DNA of 64,000 bases from a virus: positions 1 through 64,000 of IMG/VR virus record IMGVR_UViG_3300043411_001575. The stretch is one strand, 5' to 3'. The notes beneath the pieces are model-generated. The model was given only the letters and a program-made list of their open reading frames with translations. It was not told the DNA's origin and ran no database searches. The translations under genes were made by a program, and so were the position numbers. Shown here in pieces: positions 23,249-25,000 of this stretch (position 1 is the stretch's first letter; each line of letters opens with the position of its first letter).

Positions 23249-23953
23249 ATTTATTTCAATTAAAAATACGGTCAAATAAAATGGAGAAGAAATTTACAAA
23301 AAAGTATTATCAGCTTGGTTTAAATCATTTTCAGGTGCATGTAAGCGAAGATATGTTCCTGCAAGTTAAATTACATAAGGATGGTACTTATGATATGTCT
23401 ATCATTAATCCTAAATTTACTAATCCTAAACTTGGAAAAAAAGTAACGCTATCTTATTTATTAAAAGAAAAAGCAATAGCTAAAGCAAAGTCAAATTATT
23501 TAATACAGGCTTTTTCAACTATTGAAGAAATGGCTAAAGAATTAGTTAAAATGAAAAAATAATGAAATTTTTAAAGAAAATATTTTTAAGTCCATTCGCT
23601 TATTTCTTTTATGTTGTAGCTTCTCTTATCATACTAATGAGATGTTGCCACAGAACTCCTAAAAAATACATTGGAACAATTATAAGCATTAGCGAATTTG
23701 ATGGCTCTGCTAAACTAAAAACCAAAACAGAATCAGGAAAAGATACAATAGTTTATGTAGAGCATGCTTATCGTGGAGAAACATTTATAGTCGGACAAAT
23801 AATAACAATATGGGTAGGAGGAGAGTTAATTGGTGATTACGGAACAACTAAACCACAACACTAAAATGGAAAAACAAACTTGCAAAGGTGTAATAAAAGA
23901 CTTTTCAAAAGATGGAGTTCTTATAGACTTAGATATTGATGGTATTAAACAAG

Positions 23954-24386
23954 AACGGTTACAGCTTTGCGTTCGGTTTTGCCCTTCGCAAAACTGACGA
24001 CAAAGGTGGTGTTAAATTTAGGTTTAGTTCATTTTTTGAGCGTAGGATTTTAAACGACTAAAAACAATAAATATGGAAAAATATAATGCTTTACTAAATA
24101 AGAAAATCAGTTTGTGTTTTAACAACGATGTTATAAACTCATATAAAATAACGACCATAAGAGAAACTGATAGATTTATGGTTGGGTTGGAAGGAAATGG
24201 AAAAATTTTCAACTGTGATGTAGATTGGGAGAATAAACAAATTAGTGGTGGAAATAAAATTATGGAATTTCCAGAAAGCGTATTTGATGATTTAATAAAT
24301 AAGGGGTGTGCGGAAAACCCAATGATGCCAAATATGTATTTTAAGTGCGAGAGCAAAGAAAAAATGAACTAAACTTGAATTTAACG
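23954..24386 (-). mobile_element. solitary attC-like gene cassette
   Basis: Minus strand: GTTAAAT core at 24385, ATTTAAC inverse core at 24017, bulged hairpin, GTT at 23956; 27-bp inverted repeats at 24011-24037 and 24359-24385; AACG at both junctions. Confidence 0.7.
24073..24372 (+). CDS. cassette cargo hypothetical protein
   Basis: 99-aa ORF lying between the inverted repeats. Confidence 0.65.
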   Translation: MEKYNALLNKKISLCFNNDVINSYKITTIRETDRFMVGLEGNGKIFNCDVDWENKQISGGNKIMEFPESVFDDLINKGCAENPMMPNMYFKCESKEKMN

Positions 24387-25000
24387 ATTATTTTACGATA
24401 ATCATGAAGTTGTATTTAAAGGACTAGAAGTTGGAGATAAGGTTATTTTGGAAACCATAATAGAAAATAATTCAATGACGCTTAGTGTTTCAAAACAAGA
24501 AGAGCCTGTATTAGTAGCAAATAATCGAACAGGAGTTGGTAAATCGTATTTGAGAGAAAGACTATTAGAAAACTCTTTCGTGATAGATACTGAAAAAGAA
24601 ACAGAAGAATCTTTCGTTGAAAAATTAAAAGAAGCAAAAGGTAAAAAAGAAAATATTATTTTGTTAGCATCAGCTAATTTTATTACCTGTTCTCCAATGA
24701 TTACACACTTTATGCAATCAGGATTAAAAGCAACTGTGATAGTTGAAGATATTCATGATATTCAAAGTGGAATAGTAACACCTAAATTGAATGATATTGA
24801 CTTTATTAATCGCAATTTTAAAAGAGATATAGATTTAACATTAACAGCAACAAATATTCCTGAGCCAATAAAACCTGATAGTAAAAAATATGATTATTGT
24901 CACGGAAAGCAACCTGAATTAAGTTTCAAAAGTGGTGGAAATAACAGGAAAATTAAAAAGAGAAAGAAAGCTAAAAACGGAAAAAGTAAAAAATAAGGAT

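Follow-up and report, generated by a model that had tools for sequence, protein, structure and literature searches.

The locus examined here raises the question of how a 429-bp segment with an open reading frame (ORF) of its own came to lie within a conserved phage gene, and whether it arrived there as a gene cassette. The window, i.e. the whole stretch of DNA analysed, comprises bases 1-64000 of a 169,658-bp virus record (G000). In its sequence 429 bp separate two copies of AACG, and the first-pass annotation had noted that deletion of the DNA between these copies restores an ORF of 233 amino acids (aa). It had read the insert as a solitary attC-like cassette, acquired by host integrase-type recombination at a secondary site. 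As 429 is divisible by 3, a deletion that leaves an open frame is little proof by itself, and therefore real uninterrupted alleles were sought. Removal of the 429 bp fuses ...DIDGIKQER to LFYDNHEVVF..., and this is the exact sequence of the protein P0012, which is encoded on the 5.5-kb JGI contig L005. When homologs of the 3' part were sought, the N-terminal half of P0012 proved identical to the two window halves joined (...DIDGIKQERLFYDNHEVVF...). On either side of the insert L005 is 98.5-99.7% identical to the window, and it lacks exactly the 429 bp. At the empty site it reads ...CAAGAACGATTATTTT..., where AACG is present as a single copy. The empty allele that the annotation had envisaged in related phages is thus found in exact form. 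Six more distant homologs (P0005-P0010; 230-238 aa, 64-83% identity) are all uninterrupted as well, and two of them, P0008 and P0010, read ...DIDGIEQERLFYDN... over the position of the junction. Together, the empty allele in L005 and the uninterrupted homologs indicate that the ancestral state is the empty one and that the 429 bp were inserted precisely and recently. The filled allele is no assembly chimera, because the region 23800-24500 is 100% identical in at least six contigs from different sequencing runs. In these contigs the same neighbours are kept, namely a 100-aa gene, the cassette, the 173-aa remnant and RtcB.

Table 1. Features of the interrupted gene and of the inserted cassette (positions in the window)
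Feature	Position	Strand	Remarks
Interrupted gene of about 233 aa, 5' part (codons 1-30 and part of 31)	23866..23957	+	Equals the N-terminus of the empty-allele protein P0012
Left junction AACG, crossover zone	23954..23957	+	AAC common to all three independent insertions
Cassette, 429 bp, written G...TAAC	23957..24385	+	Absent from L005; identical in at least six assemblies
Imperfect hairpin, attC-like core; bounded by AAC (23954-23956) and GTT (24011-24013)	23962..24008	+	Fold, homologs, compensatory pairs
Left arm, GTTAAATTTAG and 16 nt	24011..24037	+	Pairs with the right arm over the ORF; identical in L025
Cargo ORF (P0003), 99 aa	24073..24372	+	Contains CCAG at 24271
Right arm, ending in the 11-nt box TTGAATTTAAC (24375-24385)	24359..24385	+	Cassette-end motif TTGnnnnTAAC of the array
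Right junction AACG	24383..24386	+	Second AACG copy
Interrupted gene, 3' part	24386..24996	+	173-aa remnant P0004 by gene callers

The split gene is conserved and adjoins that of RtcB (24932-26362), and its interruption shows that the system has a cost. In the filled allele the 5' part reads through into the hairpin of the insert, where it meets a stop at 23995-23997, and an in-frame stop (24382-24384) is present directly upstream of the 3' part. According to a structural model, the intact protein starts with an OB-like beta-barrel (residues 1-67), after which come a small alpha/beta domain and a basic tail; the insertion at about residue 31 would fall within the OB-like N-terminal barrel. The model gave weak matches only, to CusF, cold-shock, S1 and RuvA domain I, and a profile search of the target protein against PDB sequences yielded no match. 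Searches of Pfam and PHROGs with the cargo and with both halves of the gene gave nothing significant.

Several minor features of the surroundings were recorded. Directly after the crossover the target contains a small inverted repeat, GATTAT-TTTACG-ATAATC (24386-24411), which might form a local hairpin and so assist the use of a bare AAC as target. L005 is without about 77 nt at window positions 23374-23449, inside the ORF upstream of the 100-aa gene, and its RtcB region carries frame-breaking differences; these indels may be real or may be assembly errors. Two independent assemblies, L033 and L037, start at window position 23984/23985, which is the loop of the cassette hairpin. Such breaks could be an assembly artefact at the palindrome, or both alleles could have been present in those samples. 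A Fic-domain protein is encoded at 22433-23248, and a 246-aa ORF is found just past RtcB (26529-27269). In near-identical contigs the corresponding 246-aa gene codes for a GIY-YIG/NUMOD3 homing-endonuclease-like protein.

The coordinates of the insert are collected in Table 1; because of the ambiguity caused by the AACG repeat, the true ends of the cassette may lie up to 3 nt further to the left or 1 nt further to the right. Its 27-nt arms are complementary at 25 of the 27 positions, as had been annotated, and none of 100 shuffled sequences gave a comparable pair. With its last four codons the cargo ORF overlaps the arms. The annotated GTTRRRY/RYYYAAC layout of integron cassettes was also recovered, since the R boxes ATTTAAC (24379-24385) and GTTAAAT (24011-24017) conform to it, and these boxes would pair in the circular form. 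In the window the partner of GTTAAAT is the ATTTAAC at the far end of the insert, and therefore the full site is rebuilt only on circularisation. In the target, where only AAC/GTT are able to pair, insertion does not restore the left R box. Intergenic copies of the hairpin, described below, possess an outer stem of 7 bp of their own, which is ATATAAC/GTTATAT in L018 and AGCTAAC/GTTAGCT in L017.

Folded as DNA, the hairpin at 23962-24008 reached -15.7 kcal/mol on the + strand (z -3.3) and -11.2 kcal/mol on the - strand (z -1.7). It shows an internal loop of 5 nt versus 2 nt, a G.G mismatch and single-base bulges, which in identity and position could not be matched to the canonical extrahelical bases. 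For the circularised insert a hairpin of 109 nt is predicted, in agreement with the length of about 110 nt that had been proposed for the excised circle. Its predicted energy is -36.3 kcal/mol on the + strand and -28.8 kcal/mol on the - strand. The + strand is favoured by 4.5 kcal/mol in the hairpin and by 7.5 kcal/mol at the circle junction. The two differences between the arms occupy the same positions in the window, L021 and L017 (left TTTAG versus right TTGAA); the + strand forms T.G and G.T wobbles there, the - strand A.C mismatches. The bias towards the + strand could fit folding of the coding strand as single-stranded DNA or, equally, selection on the transcript.

The left 60 nt of the insert are a separate module. 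Its 23-nt core recurs in the contig L021 and in L017/G001 and L018/G002, both of which are complete IMG/VR phages. The hairpin copies of L017, L018 and L021 are near-identical over 60 nt and have different flanking genes, and the window hairpin is 94-97% identical to the intergenic sites of L017 and L018. One hairpin subtype is thus present in at least four otherwise unrelated contigs. The expectation of the first-pass annotation that the hairpin would be found with other cargo was borne out by L017, where it is linked to a 97-aa ORF, and by L021, where it is linked to a 124-aa ORF inside a 108-aa gene. The latter is a second case of gene splitting: the same hairpin and a different cargo form a 533-nt unit, inserted after ATTAAC, with arms of 21 nt (GTTAGCTTTAG... 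and ...TTGAAGCTAAC). Intact homologs of the split gene (P0024, P0027 and P0037; 108-109 aa) read ...RLTLP... over the L021 junction and match both L021 halves. In L025, a 405-nt unit (L025:1899-2303) follows GATAAC in the gene of a small membrane protein. Its cargo is 71% identical to the window cargo at the amino acid level, with only 76% DNA identity of the ORF, and its arms are those of the window (27/27 and about 28/28), whereas its hairpin is quite different. The empty site of L025 was not found, and we infer the empty state for this insertion. An apparent 9-nt duplication in L025 is explained more simply by an IGI-T-IGI repeat within its target protein.

In the window, in L021 and in L025 the hairpin is located at the left end, the right end reads ...TAAC and the target supplies AAC. 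The ambiguity zones of the junctions are AACG, TAAC and TAAC, respectively, and overlap only in AAC, which is also the only triplet that the three targets share. The junctions follow a common rule. This agrees, at a resolution of only 3-4 nt, with G↓TT as the crossover point (AA↓C in the strand that folds; ↓ marks the crossover). Arrays alone prove that cassettes exist, not that they move or where they are cut. The moving unit, in which the hairpin travels ahead of its gene, is defined by the filled/empty pair of about 99% identity together with the two further gene-splitting insertions and the shared hairpin, which narrow the crossover to AAC. A crossover at AAC↓G only does not explain why L025 and the window share arms and cargo and have another hairpin. 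Hairpins must therefore also be exchanged in another way, perhaps when a crossover now and then takes place at their other foot. A PeSL-like promoter/terminator module, as in T4-type phages, was considered for the hairpin and was dropped in view of the covariation in the outer stem, the gene-splitting copies and the array described next.

The cassette had been called solitary. This holds within the window but not in the genome, where an integron-like array of about 37 kb with about 30 sites of the same kind is present at 78.9-115.6 kb of the same record. In this region 29 TTGnnnnTAAC boxes on the + strand are followed by G or A, mostly G. Outside the array the genome has only three TTGnnnnTAAC boxes followed by G, and TTGAATTTAAC↓G at 24375-24386 is one of them. 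In 14 array cassettes a left arm GTTAnnnn[C/T]AG was found 237-983 nt upstream of the matching box, with a pairing of 11-16 nt. The left arms of the array begin about 100 nt past the previous TAAC, and a + strand ORF is situated between arm and box; many of these ORFs are DNA methyltransferase-like. Pairing of arms over a + strand ORF was seen outside the array only in the window cassette (27 nt). A second candidate, at 155.6-156.5 kb, was rejected: it lies in a 532-aa ORF on the minus strand and matches by chance. The solitary hairpin can be aligned with the array sites 93366 and 98409 and with the second site type of G001, and 6 of the 18 consensus pairs in this alignment have compensatory double changes. 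The architecture of the site is shared with the array; the window cassette itself is about 55 kb before the first array site. The first-pass annotation had also remarked that the cargo ORF is antisense to the usual orientation in cassettes. The orientation was described correctly; it is no oddity, being the rule in the array, in L021 and in L025. At 97425-97540 of G000 one hairpin of the array seems to have a short TAAC...GTTA site nested in its stem, AACGGTTTGCAGC (site) GGTGCTGTTA.

It had been stated as well that the window contains no integrase, which is correct, but the same record encodes one at 115703-116572, 92 kb from the window cassette. This recombinase of 289 aa begins 46 nt past the last array box and is the sole ORF of the record with a Phage_integrase domain. 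Compared with TIGR02249 it scored 155 bits, in two stretches, at a cut-off of 265. The XerA-type model NF040815 was its best model, and the best solved structure by sequence was XerA (4a8e). IntI4 was matched in two pieces only, as expected if the IntI-specific insertion is missing from the recombinase. In G001 the solitary hairpin type is located about 1.2 kb, over the record ends, from a recombinase that is 44% identical. In G002 the site is present and no homolog of the recombinase was found. A related site, TGCTAAC↓GGTTACAGC...GGTGGTGTTAGCA, was detected in the cultured Flavobacterium phage vB_FspS_mymlan6-1 (MN812227.1; L039:3495-3570), where it sits between two of four consecutive DNA methyltransferase genes. 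In this phage, which could be useful for laboratory work on the system, the recombinase has no homolog either.

The composition of the cassette is that of the array. In the 64-kb window CCAG/CTGG is present at two sites, one of them in the insert, as had been annotated. The site in the insert lies inside the cargo ORF and the other at 60171; about 145 are expected from the base composition. The whole record has 59, of which 49 are in the array (77.5-114.5 kb) and 10 outside, versus about 430 expected there, and one of these 10 falls in the window cassette. As the backbone avoids CCAG/CTGG and the array does not, the cassette shares this mark with the cassette pool, not with the backbone, and to judge from it the composition is cassette-like. 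GATC, CCGG, CGCG and GGCC are absent from the 169,658 bases, where about 341 GATC are expected in the backbone alone.

We consider it probable that the 429 bp are one gene cassette from an integron-like system carried by the phage, integrated off-array at a secondary site in a conserved gene. The mobile unit would have the order G-hairpin-GTTA-left arm-leader-ORF-right arm-TAAC. In the putative circular form its ends would be joined, ...TTGAATTTAAC to GGTTACAGC..., and the hairpin would stack with the arms and with the TAAC/GTTA boxes into the 109-nt site, possibly as single-stranded DNA folded from the + (coding) strand. A tyrosine recombinase would then cut the folded site at its 5' foot, at or beside AAC, and connect it to the bare target AAC, GAAC↓GATTA. 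The outcome would be a hairpin upstream of the cargo ORF, a right arm at the far end and a split OB-like domain. The most likely candidate for the acting enzyme is the phage's own 289-aa Xer-like recombinase, which the similarity of the sites, and this only, links to the insertion. Of the origin that had been proposed for the insert, the secondary site is retained, at G↓TT (AAC on the + strand), and the host integrase is not, the Xer-like recombinase of the phage being likelier. The locus provides concrete substrates for recombination assays, i.e. the 109-nt site and the GAAC↓G target. In a wider sense, the data tip slightly towards the view that phages of Flavobacteriia-type hosts have an active and leaky integron-like capture system of their own, with a short Xer-like recombinase and folded coding-strand sites, the single cassettes of which would cross between unrelated phages and land at bare AAC in ordinary genes. 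In this view the locus would document the states before and after an insertion and fix the mobile unit, the crossover triplet and the reversed polarity.

The same cassette biology might have relied on a recombinase encoded by the host, either a classical IntI or a host Xer, that catalysed the insertion during infection. The rebuilt R boxes indeed match the classical consensus, and both G002 and mymlan6-1 carry such sites without a homolog of the recombinase. However, this genome has a recombinase of its own directly after an array with the same end motif, and the linkage of site and recombinase is also found in G001. Catalysis by a host enzyme is thus regarded as unlikely. Very unlikely is a capture of foreign DNA by microhomology-mediated or illegitimate recombination in a co-infection, for which no dedicated enzyme would be needed. 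It would agree with a junction homology of just 4 nt and with the cargo gene being an ordinary resident of the unrelated phages L010-L015, but not with three independent insertions that have one architecture and one junction triplet, nor with the 11-nt box of the array at the right end.

Less probable still is a non-autonomous transposon. It could be MITE-like, with inverted repeats and a target duplication of 4 bp, or a single-strand element of the IS200/IS605 type that inserts 3' of a fixed tetranucleotide. Inverted repeats around an ORF, a 4-nt direct repeat at the junctions, a hairpin at one end and insertion after (T/G)AAC speak for a transposon. However, the repeats are not terminal, since the left arm begins 54-57 nt inside the left end, and the 'duplication' always contains AAC (AACG, TAAC, TAAC), which points to a site-specific crossover and not to a staggered cut. 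Besides, a Y1 HUH transposase is missing from the genome (no PF01797 match), the right end is without a hairpin of its own, and the same units fill the array beside the tyrosine recombinase. The likeness to IS200/IS605 and PATE elements lies in the recognition of a single-strand hairpin, in the insertion 3' of a short fixed sequence and in the lack of a true target duplication; unlike these, the cassette goes without a Y1 transposase, has only one local hairpin (at the left end) and is linked to a tyrosine recombinase and an array. An intron-like element that is excised from the mRNA, for example with the help of the neighbouring RtcB ligase, and leaves the host gene functional would agree with the common orientation of insert and gene, with the RtcB next door, with arms and hairpin that would draw both junctions together in RNA and with wobble pairs that are RNA-compatible. 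It is nevertheless scarcely credible. In 23000-26000 Rfam models gave two chance-level hits and no ribozyme core, even at E up to 10, and the approximately 129 non-coding nt are too short to hold the core of a group I or II intron. A splicing endonuclease was not identified, and the same units sit between genes in the array.

The favoured reading, an off-array insertion of a phage cassette, has its counterpart in bacterial integrons. There, off-array insertions (attG, SALINs) consist of a single cassette far from the integrase and the array, can hit genes and have the crossover at the foot of the folded hairpin, and IntI1 needs little beyond the GTT/AAC triplet (5'-GWT-3') in its off-array target (Loot et al., bioRxiv 10.1101/2022.09.11.507474; Souque et al., PMC10127599). 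The window cassette is likewise distant from the array, inside a gene and at AAC. Unlike attG and SALIN insertions, it resides in the genome of a phage, its linked recombinase is of the Xer-like kind and without the IntI-specific insertion, the site is 5' of the cargo ORF on the coding strand, and the 27-bp arms include the last four codons. With the classical attC it has in common the R boxes, an imperfect hairpin interrupted by bulges and an asymmetric internal loop, a structure that is conserved while the hairpin sequence is highly variable, and bases outside GTT that pair with the next cassette end over the ORF. In contrast to the classical integron, the cargo is flipped relative to the folding strand, the hairpin being 5' of the ORF in the window, L021, L025 and the array; IntI is absent, a further conserved TTG is found 8 nt before TAAC, and the system is phage-borne. 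To its own array the cassette is similar in the end motif, the pairing of the arms, the hairpin family, the polarity of the ORF and the CCAG content; it differs in its position inside a coding gene, in the length of the arms (27 versus 11-16 nt) and in a hairpin subtype that is absent from the array. The type of event, off-array insertion of a cassette, is already known for bacterial integrons; here the system is phage-borne, with an Xer-like enzyme and reversed polarity. Off-target cassette spread of the attG/SALIN type, only recently described for bacterial integrons, is thereby extended to phages and to another recombinase. Literature searches turned up no account of phage arrays of this kind.

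The cargo itself belongs to a family of which the homologs are 63-84% identical to the 99-aa P0003. When its AlphaFold model (pLDDT 71) was compared with the folds in the PDB, nothing matched at E <= 0.001. Searches of viral contigs for loci by means of the cargo gave none, and a search of viral contigs with the arm sequence gave no match. In L010-L015 the cargo homologs are ordinary, tightly packed genes without any hairpin, and the DNA homology to these contigs spans only 24061-24384, that is the ORF and 12 nt on each side. The possibility that the cassette is a displaced local gene was rejected, as the neighbours of the L010 cargo homolog have no homologs in the record. The cargo homolog at L010:2918-3241, as those in L011-L015, is a resident gene of unrelated phages. 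The 3' flank of the L010 homolog, CATAAATTTAAT, has three base differences from the cassette end, CTTGAATTTAAC, a resemblance that may be a hint on the origin or the decay of cassettes.
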